64,000 nt of DNA from Raillietiella orientalis (GCA_036172245.1 JAYWIR010000023.1:1-64000); one strand, 5' to 3'. Counted from the stretch's first letter, positions 5,984 through 47,206 are shown. Numbers and translations: made by a program. The notes: a model not told the origin generated them from the letters alone.

Positions 5984-6453
5984 CTTGCACAACGCTGCTT
6001 GGCCAACTTCACGGAAACACACAAGTGCGAGCGAAAACGCACGCACAAAGATGATCAATCGCGGACGCGGAGAGACGCCAAAACACGTCTCCACTGTGCG
6101 AGCGCAGGAGATCGACAACCGCTCCGCTACGAAATCGGCATACAATGACGTCAGGGCCGCTGAACCTGCCGTCGCGCATGCGCCTACGCCGCGATCAAAT
6201 CGCGAATCGAATCCTCCATCTCCTCATCCTTAATGCTCATCCTAAGGATAGCATTTCCAAATTTTCGCGTCCGCAGAGGCGAATAAATATTTTATAACTT
6301 CTACAGAAGCGCGGGGTATTAGCCCTCCTTTATGTAAGCCGCAATTTTTGCGGCGACGTTTGTCACCCCGATATACCGATGCAATTATTATTTTAATTCA
6401 TTGTAAAAATAAATTATATAAATAAACGCCGGAGGTCGCCGCAATTTCTGAAG

Positions 6454-9400: not shown

Positions 9401-9774
9401 GAGTGAATCGTGCTGAGGGAGGAGCCTCGGGCTGAGCTCCCGAACGCCTCTTTTGCAGAAGCGTGCGCCTCGGATGATGGTGGCTTTTTCGGAGGCGTGC
9501 GGCAGAGGCTGAGGATGCACCAGGATGCATGTAGCAGGTTTCGTGGTAGGAGGGGGAGCGAAGAATGTGGACCCCGTCGCGTTTTCGAACTCGTCTCCCG
9601 AAACCTTCCGGAGAAAGGCCAACTGTGGAGCAGGGGCAGGGAGGCAGGCATGATCCCTGCGCCATTGCTTCGCTGCAGTGGAGGGAAGGATACTGCGGAT
9701 GCTGCTCAGACGTCCGACGAACCGTATCGACGGCGCCCGGACGAGAGTTGGCAGGGATCTTGTAGGCGTGTCAG
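6454..9774. repeat. Direct segmental repeat, copy A (~3.3 kb)
   Basis: Matches 11466-14785 at a constant offset of 5,012 bp (e.g. ORFs 7196..7972 vs 12208..12984 and 8608..9312 vs 13620..14324). About 98-99% identical in the core by eye. Confidence 0.97.
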
Positions 9775-11465
9775 TTGACTCCCGAACTGCCCCCACATCG
9801 CCGTGCACGCCAGAGCTCCAGTGACACGCGCTGGCGAGCGGAATAAGCGGTCCTGGTGGCGAGTCGCCAATTTCCGTTCCTCTCCACGACTGGATGCGAG
9901 TTTCAATGCTCTGAACGCCTTTGGGGAGGGAACCGTCCCGCATTCAGCAGCCGGACGTGGTCGCGCGTAGGCTAAAGTGGGAAACGGGAGCCTTGCGGGT
10001 GGAATGGAGAGACAGGGACGCGAACGCAGAAGGTGCGCGAGAGGACCCCTCACTTCGCGCTGGCGCACGAGGAGGGTACGTTGGCACGAGCAGCTCGGCA
10101 AAACTCTTCCGTGACAACGGAGCGACCGAAGCGATGCCAAGCAACTCCCTCGTCAGGAGAACGCGCGCCGGGCTACTTTTACGGGTGAAGCGCTGCCAGG
10201 AGACGCGAGCTCGCCTGACGAGAGCGAGAGAGCATTCCCACCGCGAGTCCACCCTGCCCTTTGCGACCGGACCTGCCCGCGCCGTCGGTTTCGAGACAGG
10301 CACCCGTTCGCCCTCTGACGCATGCCCGCGTAGCCGTAACCTTTCCGGGTGCGCGGTGTCGTAAAAGGACGCTGCTCGCCCCCAGCAAACAACAACGCGC
10401 ACGCAGTCGATCCGTACCGATGGTATCGACGACGCGCGCTGCTCCAGTTGAGAAGATGGGGATAGTGGTACAGGGAACGATGGTTCGGTGATTCCTGGCA
10501 GAGCCGGGGAGCACGATTTCGGCGTTTCCCTCCTGAAGGGATGTCAGGGCCCAGGGCAGCTGCCTCTCTTGCTGCACCCGACGCTCGTCTCCCGCGCGGA
10601 ATCGCGCAGCAGGAAAGGGGCCTGAAGGGCGAATTTTCCAGCAGTCTCGTTCGTCCGACCGGTCCCTTGGCGACCATTCGGATGGATGTCTCAAGGCGGC
10701 GGCCCCACCCGTTGGCCTCCGGCCCGACAGGGCCAGGAGATGCTCGTTTCCCTAGCAGGCTTCAGCCGACACCAAGGACTCCGGCAAGAGTTTGCAGCCT
10801 CCTTGGCGGCCAACTCGACTCCTCGCGCCTTCCCGTTCCCGGAAAGGCAAATCTTCCTGGAGCGACGAGGCGGCCTCCGCGAGGGTGCGGACACAGAAGA
10901 GCGGAGCCCGCAGGTGCTGCCAACGGAGCGCGCGGCGTGATCCTCTACGGCGGCGCGCAGGAGGGAAGGAAAAAGGAAGCACCGTCCTTGGAAGACAGGA
11001 CGCTGCCGCTGCAAGAGAGCTTCCCGGGGACGGTTTCGTGCTAGGAGCAGCAAGTGGAAAGGAGCAGATGAAAGAGAGAGAGGGAGGAACGGCTACCGCA
11101 AGCCGAGAGCGCGGCGCGGGACGGATCGGAGGGTCGCGTGTTTGGTGTGAAGCTCAGGAAGGAGGCGTTCCAATATGGAGAACGGCGGCGTTGTGTCGAG
11201 AGGAGTCCTGTTGTTGGGTCCGGAACCCAGGAGCGAGTTCTGGACGGGACTCCCTCCGGAGTCCCGGAGACCTGCGCCTCCACTAGGTCGTCCTTCCCCG
11301 TACTCGCTTATCCGTCGCCGACGCACGAGCGGCGTTTCCGTTGCGCGCCAGACGCAGCTGACCGCAGGAGCCAACGAGTTCTGCTGGGATAGGCAGGAAG
11401 CGCCTCCTCTGCACCGCCACGATTCGGTCCTTCTGCACTTCACCGCGCACTTAGCAGACGCTCCG

Positions 11466-14400
11466 CGTCTGCGCGCTGCTCCTCACATGCGCGTGCCACG
11501 AGAGGTTCATCCTCCTTCGATACGGAGGAGCGCTGACGCTCCCCTTGCGGGATGGAGGGGAGCCCTCCCTCCACGTGATCCTCCTTTTCTTCGCGGCCCA
11601 CCGTCACCCGGGTGAGCTCGCCGTGCAACCGATCTGTCTTGGTGCAAGGGTCATCCGGTGGATGCCTTTCCGCGAGCGTCGCAGAGCCTCCGCAACGAGG
11701 AGGAACTGCCGGGAACACGGCAGTCCGTCGGCAGTCGACGCTCCACTCTCCACGTGAGCTCACCTCCCTTCCCGACCGCAGCGCGGACGACCGCAGGAAA
11801 ATCAAAAGAGACTGCGAGAATAAACACTTTCCGCTCCAGCTGACCACTCGCGGATTTCCAACGGCGGCACGCTCTGCCACTCGACGGTTCGCGTCCGCCG
11901 GTCGCAAAGCCCGGGCGCTACGAGCGTGCGCTCGTTGCCCGAAATTACAGCAAGATATGGCGGAAACCGCTAACGTTCCCTCTTCCGAGGACAGCAACTT
12001 GGCTCCAGACCCTGTCGCCTTCGCCCGCATGCCGGAAATGGCCACGGCTTGCGCAGAGCATTTTGTTCGCTGATGGCCTTGCGCAATCCGGGACGGCTGG
12101 CGCTCTGCTGTGCGAGTTCCTTGTGGCTGTGGCAAGCGCGTGCTCCTGAGAAGTGCCGGCGGCCCACCTGCCCGATTTTGCTCCTGGAGTGGGCAAGGGA
12201 TGGTTGATTAAGGTGGTAGGAGTTCCTTCGCCGCCCGACCGAACATCTGTAGAAACCTATAGACTTTGTGTGCGTAGACAAGCGCGCACAGCCGCTGCGT
12301 GTGCAAAAAAAAGGAGTCATGCGTCCCGGGAAATGGGACAATGCGGAAACGAAAACGCCATATCACGGGGATCGCCGCGCCCGAGCCGGAGAGGGAACGT
12401 GCACCTCCTCCCACTCTTCGATTCCCCTTGACGGAGCCCACCTTTCGCGCCAGCCTTCTGCTTCTTGTTCTTTGGGCAGTCCTTTGCCCTTGAGCTTCGA
12501 GCGAACTTCCACTCCAGAGGCGGCGCTCACGCCTTCGTCCATAAGGCGGCTGCGTTCCTCGCAGAAGCAAAGACCGCTTTCCGGATGGCATGTCCCTACG
12601 GCAACCTGCCGCTACCTGCCACACCAGGGAGCCGTGGCTCCCGTTCCCACTGCAGTTTCCTGGAATGCGCGGCTTTCCGTACGCAGGAGCCTCCAGACTG
12701 CTCCAGCTTCCTTTCCAGACTGAAGGTCGCTCTGCACTTGTGGGGAGGATGAAGACTGGAAAAATGTTTACGGCAAGAGGCTGTGAAGCGTCTGCGGGCA
12801 GCGCAGTTGGCGTCACGGGTGCAACTCCTCCTGAAGACCTGCGCCCTTCCATGCGTGCGCGCTGCGGGTGGTATCCAAAAACGTTCACGTGGACCACCTG
12901 CGCGCACGTCGTTCGCATCGAAGAACTCGGATGAAAGTCGCGTTTCTTCCGTGTTCTGGACATCCAGGAAGCGACCAACTGCATCCACTTCGCTACGAAG
13001 AAAAGCAGCGGGCGTCGGGGACGTTCTTAGCCCCATCCGTAGCAGCGCTTCTTCTCGGTCGCAAGCGTGTCTCCCAGAACCCAGCGCGGGCCGCTTAATC
13101 TCCCAACGGACAAGCGCGTCCAGGGATGGGGAAGTCATCACAGCTCTCAGCACCTTCTTGCCCCGTGGAAGTGCCCTAAAAGGTTCCAGGAGCGTGGCGG
13201 CTGCATCGCTCGGACTGGGCGGCAGCTGAGCCGTCGAATCGCGTTGTGCAGACCAGCGCTTGCGCGCTTGCACGCTGAGTACGAGGACGCGCGCCGAATA
13301 CGCGGAACGGGGATGAGCTACTTCCCCGTTCCGCATCCCATCCGGAAAATCCGCCTGTGGTCGCCACAGCGGCCAAAGAGGGTAGGAGTGGGTGGGATGG
13401 TCTCGGACATCTCCCTACAGGACAGCTTCTCTCCTCCAGCTGCTCGCAGCACCTGCACCTCCGGCGTGAAGTGGCTACATCGCCCCGGGCATCATATTCC
13501 TCGCCACGGTCGTTTGCAGCATCCCGCGTTTCACAGGTCGGTTCTGCGCCTCTCATCACGCGTGGGGCAGCGACGAAGAGCCCAGCGGACGTACCAGCCA
13601 CTCTAGTAAACTGACGAGTTCACTCGTCCTCTTCGCTTCTGTCGAGACGGCGAGCGACGCGGAAGCGTGTGAATGCCAAGCGACTCCCGCTCTCGGCGCG
13701 CGAATCCCACGGGCCACGTAAACCGACCCCCACGAGGTGCCCGGACCGATGGCCTGCGGGCCCACTGGCGGATATACGGCACGGAATGGTACAGAGACCG
13801 AGGGACCATCGTTGGCCTTTTTGGCAGACCGAGTGCAGCGCAGCCGCAAGCAGAGAATGGGACGCCCCCAGAAACGTTTGTCGCATCCGACAAGGGACGT
13901 ACCCGTTATCAAACGCGCCTGCAGTGCTCCCGGCGGGGTTCGAGCAGTCTTCTGGGACACCGGGAGGAGACTTAAAACGCGGAACCACCTCGTCAAGCCT
14001 CTTTCGCGAAGCGGCGCGCGCTCTCGCGCCGTCGCGGTGTTTTGAGAGAGATAACGTGGACACGACGAAAAGCAACGCCGCATTGTGGCGATTTCCCGAA
14101 ATCCCCAGAGGGGGGCCACGTGATTGCATGCCGTGGTTGTTTCGGGGGCAGTGCTGCCTCCCAAGCTCTAAACCAGGTTGCCCTTGACCGGATGTCACGC
14201 AACGGGACGCGCTTGCAATCAGCGACCCGTGTCGCAAGCCCAGAAGGGCGATGCATCCCGCGCTTCCCAGCACCAACTCTGCAGGACGACGGGTGACAGG
14301 GGACCACACAACGAGTGAGGCCATTCGGTTGGAGAGCCGGAAGAGTCCGAGCTTTCATGGTGCTTGGAGGAAGGCGAGTCCGCGAGCGCGGTGGACGCGT

Positions 14401-14785
14401 CCTTCACGGCGAGAGTGAACCGTGCTGAGGGAGGAGCCTCGGGCTGAGCTCCCGAACGCCTCTCCTGCAGAAGCGTGCGCCTCGGATGATGGTGGCTTTT
14501 TCGGAGGCGTGCGGCAGAGGCTGAGGATGCACCAGGATGCATGTAGCAGGTTTCGTGGTAGGAGGGGGAGCGAAGAATGTGGACCCCGTCGCGATTTCGA
14601 ACTCGTCTCCCGAAACCTTCCGGAGAAAGGCCAACTGTGGAGGAGGGGGAAGGAGGCAGGCATGATTCCTGCGCCATTGCTTCGCTGCAGTGGAGGGAAG
14701 GATACTGCGGATGCTGCTCAGACGTCTGACGAACCGTATCGACGGCGCCCGGACGAGAGTTGGCAAGGGGCTGTCGGTGTGTCAC
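11466..14785. repeat. Direct segmental repeat, copy B (~3.3 kb)
   Basis: Near-identical to 6454-9774 and separated from it by ~1.7 kb of unique GC-rich sequence. Confidence 0.97.
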
Positions 14786-21100: not shown

Positions 21101-23705
21101 TTCTCTGGCAGCCGCAGAGTTTCCCATTTCCCATCTAAGAGAAGATGCGATCCGTGAAGGCTGGTGCGATTTCCGCAAGAAGCAACCATCGCGAGTCTCC
21201 GACGATGGAAGCATGCGCGCCGTTTCTTCTGGTGGAAGCTCTGGATGGCAAAAGATCACTTCACGGCAAGACTGAAAGGCACAGCACGTTCCCAGCGGGA
21301 AAACATTCTCAGGTCTTAGCAACTACGTGTTGCAGCTGATGTCAACGGTGGGAAGATGCGATCGGCGGGTATCTTCAGTGGCAAGTTCGTCACACGTGAA
21401 ACGTCAAGGTCTGCATCCAAGAGATTCTGGTTCGCAGTTTCCCTGCAGCCGTCGCTCGCATTCAGAAAATTTCAAGGATCGCCGTCCTCTGCGAGGAACA
21501 GCCGTCTTTCACGATGCTCGTCGTCGCGCGTAGCAGTTTGTAGACCTTCGACTCGGCGGGGCGAAAGAGCTTCTGCCGTGGGGCCAGCGAAGTTTCGCTA
21601 GGGGGTATTCGAGCTGCTGACTCGTTACTGCTTCCGAACGCCCAGGATGCCGACCACCCGGTCCAGCGTGTACTCCATCGTGGCTGCTCTCCGGAGCAGG
21701 CTCGGATTGCCAAGATGAGAACGCAAAACGCACTCCGGGAAGCTGACCGGACTGTCTTTTGGCTTCAGCGCGAGCGTGACCGCCCAGTGGGTGGACGATT
21801 CTCTAGGAGACCGCTGCTTCATCGGACTCTGCCACCAGCCAACTTCGCTGCGGAACCACCGCCCGGATGCCGGAGGCGGATGTCAGCATGCGCGTCCCGT
21901 CGTTGGCACGTTCCATTTTCAGGAAAGCGTGCAAGTGTCGTGGCTGCTGGCGTTCCGCCCGACCCCACTTGCGGAGCCACGGGCCGTCCAGCCAGCCTAG
22001 ACCGGATCGTACCTTATCCCGCCGCCATGCTCGCAGCATGAGGGCGCTTCCGCCGAAGAGCGGCGCCAATCTTACGCGTTTCTGTTCAGCGAGCGTTTCG
22101 CGGGGTCCGTCGAAACGTTGGCACGACAACCGGACGCCAGCGTCGCTCGACTCGCAGATGGGGAGCCACAAGCGAAAGCGTGGCCCCAGCTGGTGTCTTC
22201 CGTTGCTCCAACGGTAGAACCCTCTCAGTAGGAGGGGAGAGCCGACGGAGAGGGAAGCGCTTTTTCGTTGTCGCTGCCGTGGCTCCCGCCTCTCACTATT
22301 TTAGAAGATGCCATGAGCGGCATGTGGACGTCGGCGCAGGAGCGGGCTTTTGCAACGCCATGCAGTCGTCGAGGACAGGGAATCGAGTATGTAGCGGGGG
22401 CAAGGAGGGAAAGCTGCGTGCACAGGGCGCTGGCACCATCCTCCGTTCTGCCCGCCTTCTTTGGCACCGGGCTCGCTGGAGCGCACGTGAAGGCATTCCG
22501 ACGCAAAGCAGCTCTGCAGGGGAGCATCCTCCAACTCGAAGAAACGTTGCGAGGGCACCGACTTCGGAGTGGCCGCGTGGTCCGGGGCGCTCCGCGTGTC
22601 GTCTGTGCCTCCGGGAGCAACTCAAGGCGGAGAGGAGTGCCGCAGGGTTCGGTTCTCTCGATTGCGTGGCAGCGCTCCCCAGATGATTGTGGGGGCAAAC
22701 GCGCCCGCTTCAGAGGGCACCCGATCCGTCCGTCCCAGAAGGAGATCGGTAATTGAGTGCGCGTTGCCGACTAGCGGGTGGCTCCATCTGCCAGAAAAGG
22801 TCGTCTGCCCAAGACACTCTGAAGACCCGCATCCGCTCTTTCAGGCATAGAACACGCAAGTGGTACGCAGGGAAAGATTTTCGGGCTCCTTCCGAGAGAT
22901 CTTGGAAAAAAGAGCTGTCCTGCTTTCAGTGCGCGACTGCGGACGTTCCCATCGCCTGCTCCGGGCTCGCAACAAGGGCTGGTGCCGTGGCTGCTGCCTC
23001 CGCTCACGTGGCACAGGGAGCCGTCACGCGTGAACCGTTGTGGGGGGTCGTCCAAGACATCCTGGTTCGCACTGGTACCTGTGGCTGTCGCTCGCATTCA
23101 AGAAATTCAAGCCGGCGCTTTCGGCGTTCGTTAGCAGCCTCGTCCGCCCGTTCCTGTTCGCGCACAAGCGGAAAATCCCTCCCCTTTCTCGCCCGCGCAG
23201 GGGGGACGTTCGTCGTCCCGCCACCTCGCGGCCGACAACGCTCGCTCGCACACGGCATGGGTTGCGGATTGCTGGAAGGAGACCCTACGGGGTCTGCTTG
23301 GGCCGCGCCATTCGGAAGAGCGATCCGTGCCGTTTTGTCCGAACGTGCTCTCCTGGTGCGCATTTGGCCCGTCCCACTTCCTTATTTGCGTTCCTGCGCT
23401 CCTGATTTTCGCATCAGCCGCATCGCAGAATCCTGGGCCAGCTCTCCCTCCCTGCCGGGACTGGTATGCCCCCTCGGGCGGAAACGGTAAACCGCAAAAC
23501 ACGTCTGGATATCCGGAAAGAAAGCTGCGCGGATGCTTGCGACACGTGCCGTGTTCTTCCGCGAGTTGGCGAGCCCATGGGAACGGCAGGGGGTCGCTCT
23601 TCCGCTCAGAACGGCAACTCGTACCCCGCCTTTCGGCCATGGACTCGCCGAGCGGTCTTTACGAAAAGAAGCGTGGCTGCCTTTCTACTTTGTGCTTATT
23701 TCCAG

Positions 23706-26700
23706 CAACAGCAATGCCTTTTCCGGAGGCGGTGACGGCGTGGCGAAGAGAGTCCGGGACATAGTCACCAACAAATTGGACAACCGACTGTACAGGGGTC
23801 TGGAGCTGAAGAATGGCATGACGGTGCTGCTGATAAGCGATCCGACCACGGAGCAAGCCGCAGCAGCCATGGCTGTGGGAGTAGGTGAGCACCGCGGACG
23901 GATAAGACGGGTGGAGCCTACCTGCACCCCCATGGCTCTTGCAGGCTACATGAACGATCCCGACGACGTGCCGGGATTAGCGCACTTTTGCGAGCACATG
24001 CTTTTCCTGGGGACGAAAGAATTCCCCGAAGAAAACGGCTACTCCAAATTTCTGTCGGAGCACGGAGGTTACTCCAACGCGTACACCGCGACCGACTTGA
24101 CCAATTTCTATTTCAACGTGCAGCCGCAAAACCTGGAAGAAGCCTTACACAGGTACCGCGTTGCCGAGGTCGCGGTTGGAGGACGTGCCTCCAGCAAGCC
24201 GCTTTAGATTCTCGCAGTTCTTCATTTGTCCGCTTTTTAACGAGGATGCGACCGAAAGGGAGGTGAACGCAGTGAACCTGGAGCACGAGAAGAACATTCC
24301 AAACGACGACTGGAGGCGATTGAATCTGGAGACGAGTTTCTCGAAACCTGGTCACCCTTACGCCAAATTTGGGACAGGTTCATAGCCTTGTTATCTGTTG
24401 GCCAGCGAGCGCATTTCTTCCCACGCAGGTAACAAGAAAACCTTGCTGGACAGTCCCAAAGAAATGGGCATCGACCCTAGGAAGCTCGTGTTGGAATTCT
24501 ACGTCAGGTGGTATTCGTCCAACATCATGTGCCTCGTGGTTCTGGGTGCAGGTACACGTGCTGATCGATGATGGTCAACCACGTGCTCTCACGTGATGAA
24601 TCTTTCAGAGACACTGGACGAGCTGGAGAGGATGGTGGTTCCAATCTTCTCTCACGTGCCGAACAAGAACGTCAGTCTTCCGCGATGGTTGGACCAACCG
24701 TACGGAGAAGAACAAGTCAAGAGGATGATGGCCATGATTCCGATCAGGGACTTGCACACCCTCCGGATGCACTTTCCCATTCCCGACCTGCAGGAATTCT
24801 ACAGCGTTCGAGTGAGAAGTGTTTCTTTTCTTCGCGGAGCACCAAGTTCTGCCGCGCTTCCCCCGCACTGTCGATGCGCAGACATTTTCGCGCGGGTCAG
24901 CAAAGAAGCACCGGGTCAACCGCCGCTGTGATTTTAGCCTTTCGCTTACCTAAGCTATCACATCGGCCACGAAGGAAAAGGAAGCCTTTTGTCGGAACTG
25001 AAGCTGGTCGATCGCTGGGCTACTTCGCTCTCGGCACAGGATGGCGTGGGGGCTAGAGGATTCGGCCTGTTCACCGTTGCGATCGACCTCACCGAGGATG
25101 GCATCGAGCACATCGACGATATCTTGATCAAAGTGTTCCAGGTACAAGGTCCGAGTCACGGTGCGAGGACTGTTGCCGTAGTACATCGCGATGCTGAAGG
25201 AGGCGGGGTTCCAGCGGAGGATCTTTGATGAGATCCAGCAGATGCGCAAGCTCGCCTTCGAATACAAAGACAAGGAGGATCCCATCGACTTCGTGCGCGA
25301 CACAGCCAAGTACTTGATGGTAACGACTGTGCTCCGTTTTCGAAAGCTACACCACTCCCCAGGACTATCCTTTAGAGGACGTTCTGTCAGGACCGTATCT
25401 GCTGCGTGAGGCCGATGTCTTGCGGATCAAGCAGGCTCTCGGCTATCTGAAGCCGACCAACATGTGGTAAGTCGCGGCGGTCCTGCTTTCGCGAGCGGCC
25501 CCCGATGGGCGAACTCCCGCAGGATGCTTGCGATCAGCAAGAAGCTCGCGATTGCTCCTGGATACGTCTGGCTCACGGATCCGTGGTACGGGACGCAGTA
25601 CAGCGTTCGGAGCTTCAACGCGGCCTTTATCGAGGTACGTAGTCCAGGTCCTTCGCTGGGCGGGCGTACCAACGGGTTGCCTCCTGCCGGTCAATTAGCC
25701 GCCAGCCCTCCCTTCTTTTTTTTTTTTTTTTTTGGTTCGCTAAGTACCTCAGAGCCAATCTCGTGCCTCGCGGTGCACGTAGCTCTTTTCTTTTTTTTTT
25801 ATACGTTAACACACTGTTTTGTTTCCACGCCTCTCCGCCCGCGGAAACCCGCAGGAAGGCGTGTATTTCTTCAGGATAGGGGGTACCCCGGGATGGGGTC
25901 CGCCCTGTGAATCCAGGAAGGTCTCGGAGTCCGTTCCTCTCACGCTTGGGGTGGGATTCCCCCCTGACGGGGGGAATGTACCTCCAACCCTGGTTGTCTC
26001 CGAAGGGGAACCCCGAAGGGAATCTCCTTCCTCATTCTCTCCGGAGCGACACTCCCCGTAATGGGGGGTGGTCCTCTCCATCTCAACTTCTCCGAAGGGA
26101 ACCCGGAAAGGATCCGCTTGTAGAAATTTCTTCTCCGGAGGGAACCCGCAAGGGAACGGATCCTGTTCACTCCTTTGAAGAACCCCGAAGGGACGCTTCG
26201 GAAACTCAGAAGGGGCGCTGGAGCTTCCCATAGGCGAATCGCTCTCGCTTGCTTCCTTGCAATCCGTAAAGAGGCAACGACTCGGAGGGACCCCCCTCAA
26301 CGGGGAGGGTCTGCTCCTTTGAACAACTGGAGAGGTGCCCGTGAGGGCTCCTGCTCCATCTTGAAACCGGAGGGGGGATCCGCTCTCCGTTGCACGACCG
26401 GTAGGGGAACTCTCCACTCTTTTATTCCTGGGAAGACCCGAAGGTCGACTCCCATTGTTCCGGCCTTCATCGGGGGCCTCCGGCTGACGACCACCGGTGC
26501 CACGTCCAAATGATTAGACCAACCAGCGCCGTTGCAGGAGAAACTCGCAATCCGACGACGCAGTGGCGTCAGAGTTTCTGCCGAAGTATGCGAACCCGCG
26601 ACTCATGGTGTCACACGCGGAAGCCTTAACCACAAAGCCTCCGACGCGGGCAGAAATCCTTCCGGTGTCCGGGCCTGGTGAGGTTTCCCATGTTGAGTCA

Positions 26701-29700
26701 AATAAAGCCGCAGGCTCCACTCCTGGTGGTGCCCTTTCGTCAATTCCTTTAAGTTTCAGCTTTGCAACCATACTTCCCCCGGAACCCAAACACTTCGGTT
26801 TCCCATAAGCTGCCCAACGGGTCACGGTTTTAACGCCGGCGGATTGCTGGTTGGCATCGTTTATGGTTAGAACTAGGGCGGTCTCTGATCGCCTTCGAAC
26901 CTCTAACTTTCGTTCTTGATTAATGAAAACATTCTTGGCAAATGCTTTCGCAGTAGTCCGTCTTGCGACTATCCAAGAATTTCACCTCTAACGTCGCAAT
27001 ACGAATGCCCTCGTCTGTTCCTATTGATCATTATCTCGAGTTCCGAGAACCAACAAAATAGAACCGAGATCCTTTTCCATTATTCCGTGCACCACTATTC
27101 CGGCACCATCGTCTGCTTTGAGCACTCTAATTTTTTCAAAGTAAACGTACCGGCCATCCGCCGACACTCGATGAAGAGCACCGACGGACGTACCAGAGAT
27201 TTCTACTCGGATCGATCTGGGATTCGCCAGGATGACGATCCGACCGTCGCAAGCCAAGATCCAACTACGAGCTTTTTAACCGCAACAAATTTGGAGTATA
27301 CTTATGGAGCTGGAATTACCGCGGCTGCTGGCACCAGACTTGCCCTCCATTAGATCCTCGTTAAAGGATTTAAAGTGTGCTCATCCCGATTACGGGGCCT
27401 CATATGAGTCCCGTATCGTTCTTTTTCGTCACTACCTCCCCGTGCCGGGAGTAGGTAATTTGCGCGCCTGCTGCCTTCCTTGGATGTGGTAGCCGTTTCT
27501 CAGGCTCTCTCTCCGGAATCGAACCCTGATTCCCGTTAGCCGTTAAAACCATGGTAGGCGCATAACCTACCATCGACAGTTGATAAGGAAGACACTTGAA
27601 AGATAAGTCGCCTGTACGAGACCGTTGCGATCAGCCCAAAGTTATTCAGAGTCACCAAGAGTTTCTGGGTCCGCGAAGGGAACGCGTTGGTCCTGTTCTA
27701 ATAAAAGCCCTCCATCCGCAAGGACGAAGTGTTGGAAGAATGTATTAGCCCTCCTTTCTTGGCAAGGTGTCGGAAGCGCTCCTACGAGGTAGATGGAGAT
27801 GCTGGCGGAAAGGGAGTCTCCCTGTTGAACCTGCACGCTGGGCGCCCGCGCGAAATTTCCAACGGTGACGGCGGCAAATGGATGAGACGGCGGCAAGACT
27901 TCGGTGCGGTCAGGTCCGTTCGCTGAGTCCGCTTCCGACGACGGAAGCGCTCACGCTGGAGGCGATGTCCCGCGCACACCCGCGTTCTTCCGTTCTCGAA
28001 GTGCTCCGCGATAACCAGAGCGGGCAGCTGAGCGACGGATCGGAAGCGCACCTCTCTGTCCGAAGGCGAGCACTTTGGCGCGGGAGGAAAGGAGGCGTGC
28101 GGTTCCTTCGCTCCCTTCGCCGCAGCGCTCACCCGCAAACGATGGATGCCGCTGCGAGGGAACGCACCGCCGCACCTCGCTGCGCGAGGGGCGCGCGCGA
28201 CGCTTTCCTCGCCGGAGCTTCCTCGTAGATCGCGCAACGGCACGCCAACGGCACGGATCGCGGGAAGCCCCCGCAGCATCGGAAGTCTTCCCTCTGGAGC
28301 TGGGAGGGTTGGGATGCAGGCCGAAGTGCAGAGCCCCCTTCCGTGCGGTGCTTTCCGACATTTGGGAAAGGATGCGCTGCTGGATGGTGATCTCACCCGA
28401 CGATGCTTTCCAGGCTCTGGGCGGCGTTCCTGCTCTCAAGAATTTCTTCCCTCCGTCGCCGAACAAGTTTATCCCCCGCAGCCTGGACCTGTATCCTCTA
28501 GCGGCAGCACCGCTGCCTTGGCTGCCGCCAGAGAAGGAGAGCCTGCCTCTGTATCCGTATTTGCTCCACCAGTCCCCGCTCTTGAACCTTTGGTACAAGC
28601 AAGACAACGAGTTCCTCACTCCGAAATCTCTCCTCTTTCTGGAGATCAAGAGTCCTGTGTCCTACGAGGACCCGAGGCACACCTGCATGCTCATCCTGTT
28701 TACGATGTTCTTAAAGGACTCTCTAAACGAGGCCTCGTACGAGGCCGGCTTGGCGGGGCTGGGCTACAACCTCAAAGCGACCAAGTACGGAATCACGGTC
28801 AGTGGGAGGGGACACGGGGATCCCGCCGGGACTGAAGAGGGAATTCCATAACGCAAAACCGCCGCTGCAGATGACGCTGAGCGGATACAGTGACAAACAG
28901 GACACGCTGCTCTCTCAAATCCTGGAGAGGATGGTTGCCTTGCACGTCGACCCGAGTCGCCTGGAAGTCTTCCGGAGGCAGGTACTGTTGCAGCGGACGG
29001 GGTTGGTTCGGCCACTCGCGGCGCGCGCAGCTCGGCAGGAATCTGGCCAACTTCCTGTTGGAGCAGCCGTACGTGAAGAGCAGCTACTACATGAACGCTC
29101 TGCTGGTGGAGAAGGTGTGGACGACGGAAGAATTGCAGAGCTCGTTGGAAGGTGAGCGATCGGGGCCGCTCGCTAACGAACCTGCACGAACGCCCTGGCA
29201 CCGCAGGAGTCACCGTCGAGGACATGCGTCAATTTCCTGCCCGCTTCTTCGCCGACGTCTTCCTCGAATGCTTCATCCACGGGAACGTCAACGAACAGGT
29301 CAAAGTCTGCTTTCGAAATTAGCTCCTCACTTTGTTCTGGGCGGTTCGTTTCCCACGCAGAGGGCGCAACAGGTCCTGCGATTAATCCAAAGCAGCTTCC
29401 GCGACAGCAAACCGATCCCGAAGGAGCAGATCACCCTTTACAGGGAGTACATCATGCCCGAGAGTGAGTAGCTGAGCCGTGCAGGAAGCAGCGGTAACTC
29501 GGATGCAACCACCAACAGAGTCTTCTTACCTGTACACGCTGCCGTACGATGCTCACAAAATCCATGCCGTCGAAGCGTACTATCAGTACAGTCCCGAAGG
29601 CAACCCCAACCACGCTTTGATGCAGCTTTTTGCTCAGATCGTTCGAGAGCCCGCGTACAGCATCCTGCGCACCAAGGTGGGGCGGGCGCTGCGCTTGCTT

Positions 29701-30440
29701 GCCATCTTACTGACCATGTTCGTCGCCCCGCAGGAGCAGCTGGGTTACATCGTGCTCTCCTCCATCCGCAGAATGAACTGCGTGCAAGGGCTGCGCATCG
29801 CCATTCAATCGGACAAGGATGCGGCTTACCTGGACCAACGGATCGAGCACTTCTGGCGATGGTTCCAAGTAGGCTAGGAGGCGGTCCTCTTCGTCCACGG
29901 CTTCATTCTTTCCTCAAGGGGTACCTCCTCAACATGTCGGAGGGAGAGTTTGAAAATCACAAGGCCGCACTGCGGAAACTGCTGCTGAGGAAGCCCAAGA
30001 AGCTGGCCGAGAGGACCGGCAAGCTGTGGGCGGAAATCGCGAACCACGAGTACAAGTTCAACCGCGACACCCTGGAAAGCGCCGACTTGGGCGTGTTGAC
30101 CCGCGAGGACGTGCTGCTGTTTTACGAGGTAGCTGCCCCTCCCTTAGCTTCACGCGCGTTCCCTCTTTCATCCTTAGAAATACGTGAGGAAAGGTTCGCG
30201 GTTCAGAAGGAAGCTGTCCGTCTACGTCATGCCGTCCGGACACAACGGGACGTCCGCGCGACCTCAGGACGGCGACGCTGTAAGCTGCCCTTTCCTCGCT
30301 CTTTTCGAAACGGGTGGGAACGTCCTTTTCAGCCGCATCGTATCGAGAGCATCAAGGACTTCAAAAGCGACCTCAGCCTCTGTTCTTTGCCCAAGCCATT
30401 CTATCCCGCCGAACTCTTCAAAGTCCATCATTACGTGTAG
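23706..30440 (+). CDS. IDE: Insulin-degrading enzyme-like metallopeptidase (insulysin, M16A), paralog 1, GC-rich; about 19 exons in this span, plus the probable exon at 18100-18191
   Basis: Motifs [28 protein letters not shown] (HXXEH zinc motif), [41 protein letters not shown] and LRTK/EQLGYIV. GT-AG introns are mostly 40-75 nt, with one large intron at 25635-28413. Stop TAG at 30438-30440 (...KVHHYV*). No disabling lesion was found when joining exons by eye. Confidence 0.93.
25704..25717 (+). repeat. Left target-site duplication of the intronic 18S-SINE insertion
   Basis: AGCCCTCCCTTCTT, running into T18 (25716-25733); 13/14 identical to 27747-27760. Confidence 0.8.
25791..26654 (-). mobile_element. 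tRNA-derived SINE-like element, copy 1 (~860 bp, with A-tail)
   Basis: The minus-strand head TCTGCCCGCGTCGGAGGCTTTGTGGTTAAGGC...GGGTTCGCATAC has A-box-like and B-box-like motifs (B box 26586-26597). The body is homologous to 45345-46040, and the A10 tail reads as T10 at 25791-25800. Confidence 0.75.
26655..27749 (-). pseudogene. 18S rRNA: Internal 18S rRNA fragment (~1.1 kb), decayed; not a functional rDNA unit
   Basis: The minus strand carries GCTAATACA, GTGCCAGCAGCCGCGGTAATTCCAGCTCC and AAACTTAAAGGAATTGACG, ending at CCGGACACCGGAAGGATT. Both 18S ends are missing, and there are substitutions at normally conserved sites (GACGAAAGGG for GACGGAAGGG, GCTTTATTTG for GCTTAATTTG, CAGAGACCG for CAGATACCG). 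Confidence 0.97.
27747..27760 (+). repeat. Right target-site duplication of the intronic 18S-SINE insertion
   Basis: AGCCCTCCTTTCTT, starting where 18S similarity ends (AGC microhomology). Confidence 0.8.
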
Positions 30441-33400
30441 ACAAACCGATGCTCCCCTCACCACCATTTCGTCCACCCGTGCGAGACTCGTGACATGCAC
30501 GAACCTTTTTTTTTTATCCGTCATCCCGCCATTTGATGACGTCCGCGTCCTATCCACCCTTGCTCCCGTCTGGCCAACCGGTCAGCAGCAATGACTGGGA
30601 TGCTCGTCTGAAGCAGCTGGAGAACCAACAGCTGGTCGCGCTCGTAACCTCGGCGACAGGAAAAGTTTGCTCAACGAACCTACTTGGGGCAACGGGACCG
30701 GGCGTTCCCAACATGCGCGGCAGCGCCTCCGACCCACGCTGCCGAGCGTTGCTTGTTATCTGGAATTGAAATGACGACCCTCGTGCGAGATATCCACCTC
30801 GTGACGTTTTTTCGAAATATACGCAAATGCAAGGGACAAACAGTCCGGACGTTGACAGCAGTCGACATCCAAGCCAGGTTTCGGTGCGTCGCAGTGGGAA
30901 CAAAAGAAAGAGCTTGGTCCGTCCGGACTAAAGGAGCATGAAAGCTTGCTTCGGGTTCTCGAAGGACACGGAACTCTCTTATCTCCAGAAAGAGGACAGG
31001 TTGCCGCTGCTCTTGGTTGTCTGTGGAGTCTTTCCCTGATTGACGGACGTAGCAGCAACGGGACAGGCAACGCAATGCTGCCGTAAGGATCCAGATTTTC
31101 CGTATTTCGCAGCGTCTGGTGCCTTTTTTTCCGGATGCTCGGAACGAACTCGCGCATCTCTGCATAAGGAAGGGCGGAGAATGACCAGACGCTGGACGCT
31201 CAGTCTGACGTGTTGCCTCCACGTGCGAGTCCCGTCTCTAAAGACGGCGCGGCTGCCGGGAGGCTTTGCCTTCGTGCGGCCACGCGGCTGGGCCTCGTAC
31301 GCCCGCTGGGTACCTGTCTTTCTCTCGAGTGGCAAGTGCAGGTCGATGTGCCTTCCAGCATTTTCCAGCCGAGTTTCCCGCATAAGAACGTCTCGCGAGA
31401 TGTCTCTTCCAACCGAGCAAACGGTGCTCCCCCGTGAAAGGGGAGCATTACATCCAGCAGCCTTTTTTCTTGCCCTTTTGTCTCGACTGCCAGCGCTGAT
31501 CGTGGAATAAGGAAGTGCTGCTCGTGTTCGGTACGGAAAGTGTCGCGACCTCTGCCCGGATAAGCCGTGATCGCTGCAGGGAGCGGCAACTTTCTGGGGC
31601 GGCGCATCCGCTTCCGCAGTAAAGGGTTCGTCTTGCAAACTGTTCCTCTTTGTTTGGTCGCCACGGGATAGGAGATGGGGCAGAGAAATCGGAGGCTTCC
31701 GGAACGAACCGCATCGTGTGCGCCGCTCGTCGCCCTTGCGATTTCTCCGAAATGTGCAAAAGAGTGTTTGCCAAAGCAGATGGGAGCGGATGCATCTCCA
31801 GCAAGCAACGAGGACGAACGCGGGCACACGGGGAACAAAAAGGAAGGGATGCCGGCGTGCATGGTGCTCCCGTATGTGGTGAGCTGGAATTCGGCGTCTG
31901 CTCGCTTCGCAGTAGTCAACGTCGTCCAAGTCTTTGCGCTGCTTCCGTCAATGAAGATGAAGCTGTTTGGCTCCACGATCTTCTTCGCATCGCAGGGACC
32001 TTCGTGCCGATGTCCGTTGTTGTTTGAGATCGCAGCACTCGTGGGTTCTGGCTTGCGAACTGGGTGGAGGACGTGCATGGAAGATGCCTCTGGCGCATCG
32101 CAAGACATCTGCAGAAGCGCAGAAACGATCGCCGAAGAAAAAGAACGGCCTGGTCGCGCTCGCTGCTCTGACTCGGGAACGAAGCTTCCGTCTTTGCTGC
32201 TAGCTCGAGGACGCACGTGGAATTCGGGGACTTCGGGAAACGCCCGGAGTGCCAAAGGGCGTGCTCTCCTCGCGGACTTGCGGCTCCTGCAGCAGAAGCA
32301 GTAGCGTTCGCTCGTTCGTTGCCAGTCTCTTGGAGAGCATGCAGACTTTTACGGAAGTGGATTCGATAGCTCCGTTTCCGAATCCGCAAAGGAGCAGCCA
32401 CTGGCTTTCCGTTTCAGAAAATGGAACGACCGGAGCAAACACCGACCTGAGGTCTGGGAGGGTCAGGAAAGTGTGCCCTTCGATCGACGTCTGACAGTAG
32501 GGCCTGTGTTCTGGCAGTTGCGGCTAGGGCGTTCGTTCCATTCGAACCTGGATGCTATGGCGAAATGCTGACGTGCAGGCGGCTCCTTGGAAACGTTTCA
32601 CGTTAAAGGGTGCCATCGTGCCTTTTCCCTTCCATCAAGACGAAACACTGCTCGAACCTCACGTGCATGTGCACCACGTAGATGGAGCGTGGGTGAGTGG
32701 TAAAAGGTGAAACGCTCGTCCCCGTGTGTGTGCGCGTGTTAATGGCAAAGTATGGGGTTGTATTGGAGAATAGTTGTTCGGAATAGAGGCAACAGATGGC
32801 ATGTCGTTACTTGGGCCATCGTACGGGCGTTTTTCTTTTGCTCTTTTCTCCCCCGCAAATCGTGGGTGGACCTCATCTTCGTACCCCACGCGCTTCGATG
32901 GCCCAGGAAAGCGTTGAGGAAGCGTCAGAGGCATCGTATGGGAAAGCATGCTCAAGATGACAGCCGATGGCCGTGCGTAGCGGGGAAGGCGCCCGAGGGT
33001 GGAGAGAGGCAAAACCGTGGGAGACCTCCAATAGCCCCTTTACGAAACCTTTATAGGATCTCAATACCATAGCACTGCGCCTCGGAAGGAGCTGAGATCA
33101 TCCTTCCAACAGGCAAAGGGAGGGCAGCTTTCCTCCGAGGAGCGGAAGGCGACATTTTGTTGGAGATGCGATTGGCTTCCTATCCAATCCAATTCGGGAT
33201 GCTCTCGAGTGTGCAAGAGCACGCTCTCCGGTTAGACGACAGTAGCAATTGCGAAGCTGCATCCCACTGCGCAGCTTCATCCACTCGCTCCATGGCTGGC
33301 ATCCGGACAAATGAGGTCCATTGAAGCTTGTCATACGTGAGCGAAACTTGGGAAACCAGAACGAGGTTACTCAGAAGTTGAAGACCGCAGACCTCGGAGG

Positions 33401-37800: not shown

Positions 37801-40800
37801 ATTTACATTAAATTATAAAAGTTATGGTTGAGAAATTTTGAATACATTATGATTACATTAGCCAGGAACATACCTTTGTCATTTAATGGGTCATGAAGGC
37901 CAAGGGAGTTTGTTATCAGAATTGAAACTGAAAAAAAAGTGGGCTACTGCTCTTAGTGCAGGAGAGGTAACAGTTGCAAGAGGTTTCGGATTCTTCTCAA
38001 TCTTTATAGATCTTACAGAAGAAGGCATTGATCACTTTGAGGAAGTTGTAGTCAAGATGTTCGAGGTAAAGAATGATACTGATTAGAGGGGATATCTTTT
38101 TGTTTATAGTACATAGCCATGTTGAGAGATGAACTACCACAACAATGGATTTTTGAAGAAATGAAGCAGTTACATGATATCCGTTTTCAGTACAAAGATA
38201 AGGAGGAGCCCATTAAATATGCACGGCATTTAGTGCGATTCATCCAGGTGCAATCAATGTATGCTACCTAGGAGATATCATTGACATGTCTTTCAGCTGT
38301 ATCCTCTTCCAGAAGTGCTTTCCGGACCTTACTTACTTTATGATTACAATCCTCAACTTATCAGCAAGGTTCTCAGTTATCTGCATGTAGATAATTTTTG
38401 GTGAGCTATTTGCTAGAAATAGTGATAGTACATCTTCTGTAGGATTAATGTTATCAGCAAGAAGTTCGAGAATTCTTCTTTGCTCACTGAACCATGGTAT
38501 GGGACACAGTACAGTCAGTCAAAACTGGACAGTAGTTTTATTGAGGTAAACTTTTAAAATTACATTTTAAGGATGCTTTACTGTCATTGGGAGTAAGCTG
38601 TTTGTGAACAATTACGCGTCAACACAAATTTTTCAGGGAATTGACGAAATTTCAGCTGGATTTCGATGTTTTATGAAGACATAATTTGGGGATTTTTCTA
38701 AATATATAAGGGTAGTAGTTCAGGTATGGTGTATGACGTATTTAAATGTTGTATTTTGTGTATTAATGTTTTGTTTTTCATTTTGTGAAATATTTGCAGT
38801 TGGTTAGCAAGGGTTCGTTTGTTTAAAGTATTTTGTTTCCCAGAAGAAAAATGACTTTTTATTTGAAGTAGCAAACTATTTTGTAATTGCATTTAGGTTG
38901 TACCATCGAAGGTTTACATGGTTGAGCTACCAGCATTTTGCAGGAATGTCTGTAAGGCAAAGATTAGCCTCATTCGTTGAGGACTTCAGCACATTTTTCT
39001 GCAGCTGTGAACACCTCGTTTTTGCATGCTAATAAGATTAAGAAATGAGATTGCTTGAGATCTTAAAGCCTCTCTGTGTGTTATTGCCATCTGAGTTTGT
39101 GTATGTCAGTGTGGTATATTTCTAAATGCTATGATGGTAGAACTGATATTCTTTATTCACTATGTTCCATCAACGAGCAGAAAGATAATTATGCACGTGA
39201 ATGTAATCTGTGTAATTAATTTTCAGTGAAGCAATTTTAATGATGCATACCAATTATGCACATGAAAAAGGTGAACTCCATTTGATCGCAATCCACAGTT
39301 CCTTCACAATGACTTTTTGCTCATAAATAAATTTATTTTGCAATGTGACTGCATATTTTAACAATATTTTAGTGTTAATGAATGCACAACAGGTTGATAT
39401 GATGAGGGAAATACAATGAAAGCCTTGTTCTGCTTGCAGAAACTTCGTACAGTTTCCAAACGGGACTGCTTTTTCCTTCCTAAAAAGAATGAATTCATCC
39501 CATCCAATCTGGAATTGTGGCCTCTGGAAAGCATCAGCACTGCACAGAATAATCTTGTCACCTGTCATCCAGCATTGTTGGAAAAGTCTCCTTTAATCCA
39601 TTTTTGGTACAAGCAGGACGATGAGTTCTTTTTACCAAAATCTATTCTAATTTTGCACGTGTTGAATCCGCTATGTTATGTGGATCCCTTGCATGCCAAC
39701 ATGCTGTATTTGTACATCCAGCTGTTGCACAATTCACTCAATGAATATACTTACAATGCTGAGTTGGCTGGTCTTCATTTTGAGCTGCAGGCTACAAAGA
39801 ATGGCTTGATGGTAATTAGTAAAAGCTGAATTGAGAACCTACTGTTGGCATGATTTCTAGTTGACTGTTCATGGTTATAGTGACAAACAAGACATCCTAC
39901 TGCTGAAGATCCTGGAGAGAATGATGTCTTATGTGGTGGACAAACAGCTGTTCGTGGTATTTAAAGAAAAAGTACGCATGTTGTGCTGCTGGCTTATTTA
40001 CTTATGCATAATGTGCCTACAGTACAAACAGGATTTGAGGAACTTTCAATCTGAGACTCCCTACGTGCAGGCGACGTATTATGTGAATGTGTTACTTACT
40101 GAGAAGATATGGACCAAAGGGCAGTTGTTGCATGCTGTAGAAGGTACACATCTTACATAGCTCAAAGGACCAGAAGCTAGTTTTGTGCTCTAGATGTTTC
40201 TTCTGATCTTTTGCAGTCATTCATTGGGGAATTTTTCTCTAGTGTCTTCATCACTTGCTTGCTTCATGGCAATGTGAATCTTGAGGTATTTCTGTGGTAC
40301 ACTTTTCCCAGCGTGCGACGCTTTTTCTTTCCAGAGAGCTGGGCATGTGTTGGAGATTATTGAGAAACACTTTCACAATAGCAGACCATTGCTGGAAGAG
40401 CAGTGTATCAGGAGCAGAGATTACAAGCTTCCCAAACGTAAGTTCTTCCATCCAAGTCCTTAATTTGCTGTTGGCAGAATCAGCCTTTCGTTTTTCTGTG
40501 AACAATGCTGTGCATCCCACTCATGCTCTTGCCGTTTATTTTCAATGCACTGTTAAGAATTCAGCCAACAATGCGCAACTTGCTCTTCTAGCCCAAATGC
40601 TTCATGAGCCTGTATATGATGTCCTGCGGACTCAGGTGAGTGAGTAACACAGTTGGTAGTGCAGTCCATTTTTTCCCAAATGTGCTATAGGAACAGCTAT
40701 GCTACCTTGTCCTGAGCAGCTTGCACAAGCTGAACTGTGTCCACGGTTTGCGCTTCCTGATCCAGTCAGACAGAAGACCCGAGTATGTCAATGAGAGACT

Positions 40801-45196: not shown

Positions 45197-46040
45197 AATT
45201 TTCTTTTCAAACGTGAGATCATGCAAAATAGCAGGTATGCTCTAGGTGTGACGAAGAACAAAAACAAAATGCTCCACTCAGGAGTTCCCTCATGATGGAA
45301 ATCCTTTCTTTGTCTTCGCAGCTCTTTGACACGATTCCATGCCACCCGAGGATGGGTAATTCTTCAAGATAGGGGGTACCCCGGGAGGGGTCCGCCCTAT
45401 GAATCCGGGAAAGACTCGGAGTCCGTTCCTCTCACGCCTGGGGAAGGATCCCCGGAAATGGAGATCACCTTGGTTGTCTCCGAAGGGGAATCCCGAAGGG
45501 AATCTCCTTCCTTATTCTCTCCGGAGCACCCCAAGGGGATCTGCTCCATTCTTTCTTCTCTGAAGAGACCCCGGAAAGGATGCGATCCTGGAATTTCTTC
45601 TCTGGAGGGATCTCCCGCAAGGGATCCGCTCTTCTTTTTACTCCTCTGAAGAGAACCCAGAAGGGACGCTTCCGAAATTCAGAAGGACGCAGCTTCCCCG
45701 AAAGCATCGGCTCGCTTCTCTGCACTCTCTGGAGAAGTGGTGGCGACACACCTACTCCATCAGTACGACGCAGAGTGTCCCACCCGGAATACGGGGCCCG
45801 CTCCTTCACAACCGGAGGGGAAACCCCCCACTCCGTAATTCCTGGAAGGACCCGGAGGTCGACTCCCATTTGTCCTGGCCCTCATCGGGGGCATCCGGTT
45901 TCAACCAGCGTCATCTCGTGGGGTGAACTCGGAACCCACGACGCGCTGCGTCGATTCCCTTCGGAGTATTCGAACCCACGACACTTGGTGGCGCCACGCG
46001 CGTAGACCACCGTAACCACACGGCCTCCGACGAGGGCTGA
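45197..46040 (-). mobile_element. tRNA-derived SINE-like element, copy 2 (homologous core 45345-46040)
   Basis: Minus-strand head TCAGCCCTCGTCGGAGGCCGTGTGGTTA...GGGTTCGAATAC (B box 45966-45977). It shares blocks with copy 1 such as GATAGGGGGTACCCCGGGA, CTCGGAGTCCGTTCCTCTCACGC and AGGTCGACTCCCATT. Candidate 9-bp TSD GTGTAGCAT at 45188-45196 and 46041-46049. Confidence 0.75.
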
Positions 46041-47206
46041 GTGTAGCATTTGGCATCTGTTTGGGCGGGTGCACGTTCACTTTTTACGGTAACCAGTGTG
46101 AAGTGATGAACTGTTGAGGGCTTTCTCAGCTCGTCACCTTTGCCTGCACAGTGTTCTCACTTGCAGATTAATACCTACATTACTTCTGGTAGGAGAGAAG
46201 TATTCCTTGACTGCTTCGCTGATCAGTGATGACAAAAACTGAGTCACATATGTGGTCCTTTGTGCTTCTGATGTGTTAAGCAGAAGCATTAAGCTTGCGA
46301 GAAAATCACAACTGGTCAAACTTGTCACAAGGACGGTACTTAATTCACGGGAGCACACTAGATTCCACAATTAGGAGCTCCTGGCAGACAGTTTTAACAT
46401 CATCACAGCGAAAGGCTACCTTTATGTTTTGAGGTGCCAAGGAATACAAAGCCACACCAAAGGCGGGAAACCGCGAAAGAAGCAAATTTTGCTAACAATT
46501 CCGTTTTTTCCCTGCGAACTAAAATTTTGTGAACCGGATCATGAAGTCAGAAAGCGAAATGGCCATCTTTCTCTATTCAATCAGTCTAATTTGAAACGAT
46601 GTTGCGAAAAAAAATAAAAAATAAAACAGGCATGCAAATAAATCGCAGGACATAAGAAATCTCGTGCGTGCCATACCACAAGCTCGAATCAGCGGCAAAG
46701 AACTCTTCATGAGCTGGGATCTGTTGTGCTGGTGGCAAACATTCTTCCGGGTATCTGTCCTCATTCGAAGTGGGCACTTTGAGTGAGACGGCACGGCGCT
46801 CTGCATTAAAACCACTTTACAAATTCATCATGCACGCAACAGGGTAAAGCAACTTAATAAAGTGCATCTAAGCAAAAAACTGCACGTGGTAACTACTAAA
46901 GTGCAGGCCCGTGCCTTCAGAATCTATTCACTAAGAAACCGCATCTTAGTAACCGTCAGGTTCTTCGATTCGCAATTACGGGAGGTGATCAGCGATTTTC
47001 TGCTAAAGCAAATGTAAAAATCACGAGAACACATGTTTAAAAACAAATATCTGTATAGTTATACGACGGAAGTCACCCCCCGTATGTGAACTACAGTGCA
47101 TCTAATCCGGAGTCACCTATAAATCTGTCCCCTTTAATCAGAAAATCAATGTATTTGAGCTGTCGAAATTTACTGCAAACTTCTGTGGTAATTGTATAAA
47201 ACACCT

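Follow-up and report, generated by a model that had tools for sequence, protein, structure and literature searches.

Template switching by the reverse transcriptase (RT) of long interspersed nuclear elements (LINEs) is a documented route to chimeric insertions that are fused directly, in the same orientation, and flanked by target-site duplications (TSDs), including insertions that contain ribosomal RNA (rRNA), as the accessible text of PMC2104539 describes. In the template-switch retrogenes of mammals and Magnaporthe treated there, RNA copies are joined in one orientation, poly(A) is found at the 3′ end only and one pair of 10-20-bp repeats surrounds the whole; short interspersed nuclear elements (SINEs) or rRNA are possible partners, and the tripartite WEIRD/Mg-SINE/MGL chimera of Magnaporthe features 14-bp repeats. 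An insert of similar appearance occupies positions 25704..27760, on the minus strand, of a 64,000-nt stretch of the Raillietiella orientalis genome (GCA_036172245.1, JAYWIR010000023.1:1-64000), which is referred to below as the window. It consists of an internal, decayed fragment of 18S rRNA fused to a SINE-like element and is located in an intron of an M16 insulinase gene. The classical chimeras combine a full-length 5′ partner, a small RNA, with a 3′ partner that is a 5′-truncated LINE (PMC2104539), whereas in the present insert an apparently complete SINE-like RNA is joined to an internal 1.1-kb piece of 18S that is truncated on both sides, and no LINE sequence is recognisable.

Several other systems share part of this structure. 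The primate 28S rRNA/LINE-1 chimeras (n = 18, 83% in the same (sense) orientation; accessible text of 10.1101/2025.02.02.635956 and PMC13174262) also carry a partial rRNA of RNA polymerase I (Pol I) in sense upstream of a retroposon within a single TSD-flanked insertion. They differ in the rRNA involved (28S, not 18S), in the length of the fragments (50-482 nt vs. 1,095 nt here), in the partner (LINE-1, not a SINE) and in their primate hosts. In the accessible literature, such chimeras were first catalogued in 2025-26, and the term “18S” has 0 occurrences in the accessible text of both versions of that catalogue. U6/LINE-1 chimeras, cited in 10.1101/2025.02.02.635956, similarly have an abundant nuclear non-coding RNA at the 5′ side of a retroposon copy. 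As is generally known of these chimeras, and in distinction from the 18S slice, U6 is present in its entirety, up to its natural 3′ end. Tailless rRNA retropseudogenes, as presented in PMC5322556, are LINE-mediated rRNA copies with TSDs, 5′ truncations and 3′ ends at single-stranded positions. They stand alone and are internally primed without poly(A), whereas the 18S part of the insert lacks its own priming site and relies on the poly(A) of the SINE. In the retroelements R2, R8 and R9, specific for ribosomal DNA (rDNA), the retroelement also adjoins 18S sequence, but rDNA is present on both flanks at a fixed site, as outlined in PMC5035012, whereas the insert lies in the intron of a protein gene and its 3′ flank is not rDNA. 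No 18S-SINE chimera was found in the open-access literature, a scope that does not establish absence from print.

Anatomy of the insert and its target site

Read on the minus strand from 27760 to 25704, the insert begins with the 14-nt repeat AAGAAAGGAGGGCT (5′ TSD, 27747..27760), which is followed by 1,095 nt of 18S sequence (26655..27749) and a GC-rich, non-coding element of ~0.9 kb, consisting of an 82-nt head module (26574..26655) and a body (25801..26573). Downstream of the element are a run of ten A (A10, 25791..25800), a 57-nt segment (25734..25790), a terminal poly(A) of 18 nt (A18, 25716..25733) and the repeat AAGAAGGGAGGGCT (3′ TSD, 25704..25717). The last 3-6 nt of the 5′ TSD also match 18S at the truncation point, and the last two A of the poly(A) are common to the 3′ TSD. 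The insert bracketed by this single TSD pair is 2,029 bp long. Tandem Repeats Finder (TRF) detected a T18 run on the plus strand, in agreement with the terminal A18. Direct reading of the insert revealed neither an A-run nor a repeat between the 18S and SINE parts. The original prediction, made from the sequence alone, had placed 18S at 27749-26655 on the minus strand, a position supported by the Rfam matches and boundary scans; the spacerless joint that it described at 26655/26654 and the tail of A10, a ~57-nt spacer and A18 were likewise recovered by direct reading.

On the plus strand, the two TSD copies, AGCCCTCCCTTCTT (25704-25717) and AGCCCTCCTTTCTT (27747-27760), are identical at 13 of 14 positions. 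The 14-bp duplication with one mismatch, with TTCTT beside the poly(T), had also been predicted. The significance of this repeat was assessed with random 2,042-bp intervals in 3,000 trials, in which an equally good repeat within ±10 nt of both ends was found in 2/3,000 cases for the whole window and in 1/3,000 for its GC-rich half. The reconstructed empty site has its first nick on the plus strand at TTCTT|GG, which would leave a T-rich end able to prime on poly(A). On the minus strand, the empty site should read ...CCTTGCC, followed by a single copy of the 14-bp repeat and then by GGCGGCTAATTG. The 5′ TSD ends with AGGGCT, and 18S has AGAGCU/GCU at this point, so that the target shares 3-6 nt of microhomology with the end of the complementary DNA (cDNA). 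Microhomology at the 5′ joint is the usual signature of 5′-truncated LINE-type insertions.

The insert thus displays a bracketing TSD, a 3′ poly(A) at a T-rich nick site and a content copied from RNA, the features by which LINE-mediated target-primed reverse transcription (TPRT) is recognised. Because there is one TSD pair, one terminal poly(A), a T-rich nick site and 3-6 nt of microhomology at the truncated 5′ end, it is highly probable that the insert was produced by one TPRT event carrying a composite cDNA.

The host intron (25635..28413, plus strand, GT...AG) is 2,779 nt long, and the insert starts 69 nt past the donor. It is antisense to the host gene, and the original prediction had also placed it antisense in an intron of an IDE gene. 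Subtraction of the insert and one TSD copy (2,043 nt) leaves 736 nt, confirming the earlier estimate of ~0.74 kb, to be compared with 894 nt for the equivalent intron (38546-39439) of the tandem paralog 2.

These data bear on the idea that the two parts arrived as independent, abutting insertions or were joined by the assembly, which is very unlikely. A SINE inserted later into an 18S pseudogene would leave its own TSD at the joint and 18S sequence past the poly(A); what is seen is an intronic 3′ flank and a repeat around the composite as a whole. If 18S had been added after the SINE, it would have had to insert precisely where the TSD meets the first base of the SINE. As for the assembly, mis-joins are a well-known problem with rDNA and SINEs, but the 18S part is changed at highly conserved positions, as described below, and does not represent collapsed rDNA reads. 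The TSD links the outer end of this part to unique intron sequence, and removal of the insert restores a normal intron of 736 nt with intact GT...AG. Mis-assembly is unlikely for these reasons.

The 18S fragment and the SINE-like element

The eukaryotic small subunit (SSU) rRNA model of Rfam (SSU_rRNA_eukarya, RF01960) matched the minus strand in three colinear stretches, 27831-27511, 27420-27304 and 27292-26780, with no match elsewhere in the 64-kb window. According to the boundary scans, credible homology starts at model position ~163 (GCUAAUACAU, window 27749) and ends at position 1241 (AAGGAUU, window 26655). The 1,095 nt between these points cover ~1,079 positions of the model, which is 1,831 positions long, in a colinear manner. 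Apparent 18S homology upstream of 27749 was rejected as spurious, since it can be aligned only through a 142-nt insertion of low posterior probability, and the alignment downstream of 26655 was rejected as gapped noise. The last eight matched positions (uaAGGAUU) are marked as unpaired in the consensus structure line of Rfam.

The 18S sequence has decayed. Between model positions 606 and 1241, ~8-10 mismatches at upper-case (highly conserved) consensus positions were counted by eye in the printed alignments; for example, GACGGAAGGG appears as GACGAAAGGG, and CAACACGGG appears as CAACAUGGG. An 11-nt scrambled patch (27293-27303) lies between two of the Rfam matches. Judging by its sequence, the fragment is a pseudogene. 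About three of the ~8-10 changes at conserved positions are, by eye, CpG transitions (ACGG to ACGA twice and ACGG to ATGG once); these would fit methylation-driven decay.

The junction at 26655/26654 reads ...GGAAGGATT|TCTGCCCGCG. T26655 is assignable to either 18S or the element, resulting in a 1-nt overlap at the joint. A BLAST search of the insert against the window revealed a second copy of the element at 45300..46052, also on the minus strand; in the global alignment of the two copies, 568/805 aligned columns are identical (70.6%). The second copy matches 8 of the first 11 bases past the 18S end (by eye), and unambiguous homology begins at GCCC, 4 nt in, which places the start of homology 0-4 nt from the junction. 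The 82-nt head, counted from 26655, is closed by a perfect 7-bp terminal stem, TTCTGCC/GGCAGAA, and has a minimum free energy of −35.8 kcal/mol (z = −3.49), with 0/200 shuffles as stable. The start of homology to the second copy and the stem-closed head indicate that the end of 18S coincides with the start of the element. The SINE-like part thus appears to be complete at its 5′ end.

The Rfam scan of the window found no rRNA upstream of or near the second copy. 18S is, therefore, not an obligate part of the element. No TSD was detected for the second copy, which is older, has no clear poly(A) and is located between two AT-rich blocks. A profile search found no third copy of the element in the window.

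A composite family, in which the insert would be one of several copies of an 18S-headed version of the element, is very unlikely in view of these observations, with one junction in the window and a second copy free of 18S. Indirectly, such a family is made conceivable by the rRNA-derived SINE heads known for 5S and 28S (cited in the accessible text of 10.1101/2025.02.02.635956). However, the internal 18S slice has no known promoter and lies upstream of the promoter-like boxes of the element, so the 18S part would presumably not be transcribed.

A 25-mer and a 19-mer of the junction gave 0 matches each in viral and prokaryotic collections, which do not include this host and are silent on the uniqueness of the junction. 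A 23-mer of the element gave 0 matches in each of the prokaryote-genome and viral collections, to which the same limit applies. In a metagenome scan with a 21-mer of the element, six loci were obtained and rejected as chance matches, with only 21-24 seed bases matching. Among 22 listed public sequencing runs, none shares half of the words of the locus. The best shares were 0.07-0.10, the top three runs being annotated as tick metagenome RNA; these small shares are presumably due to conserved 18S words and are no evidence of host or habitat.

The element seems to be non-coding: no Pfam family was assigned to three open reading frames (ORFs) across its body, and the two copies differ by indels whose lengths are not divisible by three. 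No internal tandem repeats were found in it with TRF. There is no TTTT run in the 938-nt sense strand, with ~1.4 expected, and the second copy contains a B-box-like motif, GGTTCGAAT. Both features speak in favour of an origin from RNA polymerase III (Pol III) transcripts. The original prediction went further in naming the element a tRNA-SINE, which the covariance models do not bear out, as neither head has an Rfam tRNA match at E ≤ 1 or at E ≤ 10. ARAGORN predicted 0 tRNA genes with default settings and recognised 0/2 heads with the -ps and -ps90 options; with -ps80, it reported a tRNA-Leu-like cloverleaf in 1/2 heads, that of the insert. The tRNA-SINE label is thus weak. The length of ~0.9 kb is long for a SINE, and two copies are present in 64 kb.

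The 57-nt segment between A10 and A18 may represent a 3′ domain of the SINE, a transduced flank or a third template. It has no other copy in the window, it is not 18S according to the Rfam alignment and its folding is unremarkable (z = −1.74). Both copies of the element have, after an A-run, the sequence AAAGAGCT(A/G)CG, 12 nt long with a single mismatch between them, a hint that the element includes at least the beginning of the segment. A foreign origin of the segment would make the insert a tripartite chimera.

Origin of the composite

The 18S and SINE parts have the same orientation and are fused directly, with neither poly(A) nor a repeat between them, which is the arrangement by which template switching is recognised in the accessible text of PMC2104539. 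The component parts, how they are ordered and oriented, and the TSD, poly(A), microhomologies and decay are seen in the sequence itself. We infer that LINE machinery was at work and, above all, that the fusion took place by a template jump rather than in a pre-formed chimeric RNA. The probability that the composite was formed by a jump of the RT from the 5′ end of the SINE RNA onto 18S rRNA is estimated at roughly 0.55. The original prediction proposed a single event in which the RT copied a full SINE RNA and then moved to a cleaved 18S RNA. The part of it that stands is the single LINE-type integration of a composite cDNA, indicated by one TSD pair, one poly(A), the shared orientation and the position of the joint at the 5′ end of the SINE; the jump itself is not separated by these data from the retrocopying of a SINE located in an 18S gene, which the prediction had itself named as an alternative, or from RNA ligation.

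The process could be described as follows. A poly(A)-dependent LINE endonuclease would nick the plus strand at TTCTT|GG, and the T-rich 3′ end would prime on the poly(A) of the SINE-like RNA. The RT would copy this RNA to its extreme 5′ end and, without dissociating, continue onto 18S rRNA at U1241, in a stretch drawn as unpaired in Rfam, with the 1-nt overlap at the joint. It would halt ~1.1 kb further on, at 18S position ~163, and the cDNA end would then join the target via the 3-6-nt microhomology, leaving the 14-bp TSD. The copy would have decayed since the insertion and has no evident function. A complete 3′ partner and an 18S part cut at both ends fit an end-to-end jump onto an RNA end or an accessible site.

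Several points weigh against the jump. The 5′ partner is not of full length, as 18S spans only positions ~163-1241 of 1,831, and the 3′ partner is not 5′-truncated, as no 5′ portion of the SINE-like RNA appears to be missing; the insert deviates from the classical chimeras in both respects. For the jump, an 18S fragment would already have had to end at U1241, or the RT would have had to land internally, and nothing at this locus shows such an end. The element is at best a putative Pol III tRNA-SINE. The jump also does not account for the 57-nt segment between the two A-runs, and if this is foreign, two jumps or a different template would be needed. Finally, nucleolar Pol I RNAs have given rise to disproportionately few human retropseudogenes; PMC5322556 reports only 2 tailless, 5′-truncated 18S copies and 10 tailless 28S copies.

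A chimeric RNA that existed before reverse transcription would lead to the same anatomy: an intact 5′ end immediately preceded by 18S, a single poly(A) and a single TSD. The element might have resided in the 18S gene of an rDNA unit, or beside an older 18S pseudogene, and been co-transcribed with it, retrocopied from the poly(A) and 5′-truncated at ~163. In a variant of this explanation, an RNA ligase would join an 18S fragment to the SINE RNA, as proposed for U6/LINE-1; RNA ligation and template switching are both listed as routes to chimeras in the accessible text of 10.1101/2025.02.02.635956. Elements resident in 18S genes are known, e.g., R8 of Hydra (accessible text of PMC5035012 and PMC3636483), and, given that the purine-rich end of the 18S part (GGAAGGATT) bears some resemblance to the actual target (AAGAAGGGAGG), the nuclease of this LINE might cut there. 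However, no 18S follows A10 or A18 and the alignment past 26655 is gapped noise, i.e., no trace of an rDNA 3′ flank is present. The only other copy of the element lies in non-rDNA sequence and the observed target is an intron, which argues that the element is not rDNA-specific. An extra prior event is also needed, namely insertion into an array under concerted evolution and then transcription of the unit. A pre-formed chimeric RNA is, on this evidence, possible but rather unlikely.

A more specific version of the template jump can be formulated, in which an invertebrate-type LINE RT passed from the 5′ terminus of the SINE RNA to a pre-cleaved 18S fragment ending in a defined single-stranded loop (U1241). 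In this exact form, the jump is speculative and improbable. If it is true and other loci share the 18S breakpoint, this would point to a recurrent in vivo SSU rRNA cleavage product reaching retrotransposition complexes and to a possible route by which rRNA-headed composite retroposons are born.

A remnant of a non-LTR-type reverse transcriptase, interrupted by frameshifts, is present in the window at 2608-4604 (plus strand), and also at 972-1328 (plus strand). The Pfam domain RVT_1 was matched with E = 9.3e-13 at 2608-3018 and with E = 1e-5 at 2906-3574, and a weak zf-RVT match (E = 0.0016) was found at 972-1328. The presence of such a remnant in the same window counts in favour of the proposed event, although no similarity was found between it and the tail of the SINE-like element.

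Rather than a new kind of element, the insert is a rare but recognisable product of the retrotransposon machinery. Chimeric retrocopies preserve a natural record of the templates that a LINE RT has met and of how it switches between them, and the large Pol I rRNAs are rare among them. This clean, TSD-bracketed insertion is unusual in its primary template, a SINE, in its second template, 1.1 kb of 18S, and in belonging to a non-mammalian genome. The insert widens the known range of chimera partners and sizes and can serve as a dated insertion marker of the host lineage. It leaves the view of how such chimeras arise unchanged and shows no sign of function.

Host gene and other features of the window

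The host gene was assigned to the M16 insulinases by Pfam matches to Peptidase_M16, M16_C and M16_M on successive exons of the plus strand. A search for related sequences with an exon of this insulinase gene yielded 1,564 candidates with shared words, none of them reaching E ≤ 1e-10. It is one of two tandem M16 insulinase paralogs, located at ~23500-30500 and 38441-39826 of the window. The second paralog was considered as an empty site for the insert and rejected, as the protein identity is only 42-49% and the introns are not comparable. The base composition around the two paralogs differs markedly, with ~55-64% GC for paralog 1 and ~33-39% GC for paralog 2, and the switch occurs near 34 kb.

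On the sense strand of the host gene, the antisense poly(A) of the insert forms a T18 run that is followed 19 nt later by CCTCAG (window 25716-25753, plus strand). This resembles the polypyrimidine/AG arrangement by which antisense SINEs may become exons.

Elsewhere in the window, parallel long ORFs with no Pfam matches are contained in a 3.3-kb direct repeat. Its two copies, at 6453-9773 and 11465-14784, have 98.1% identity and a spacing of ~5,012 bp.

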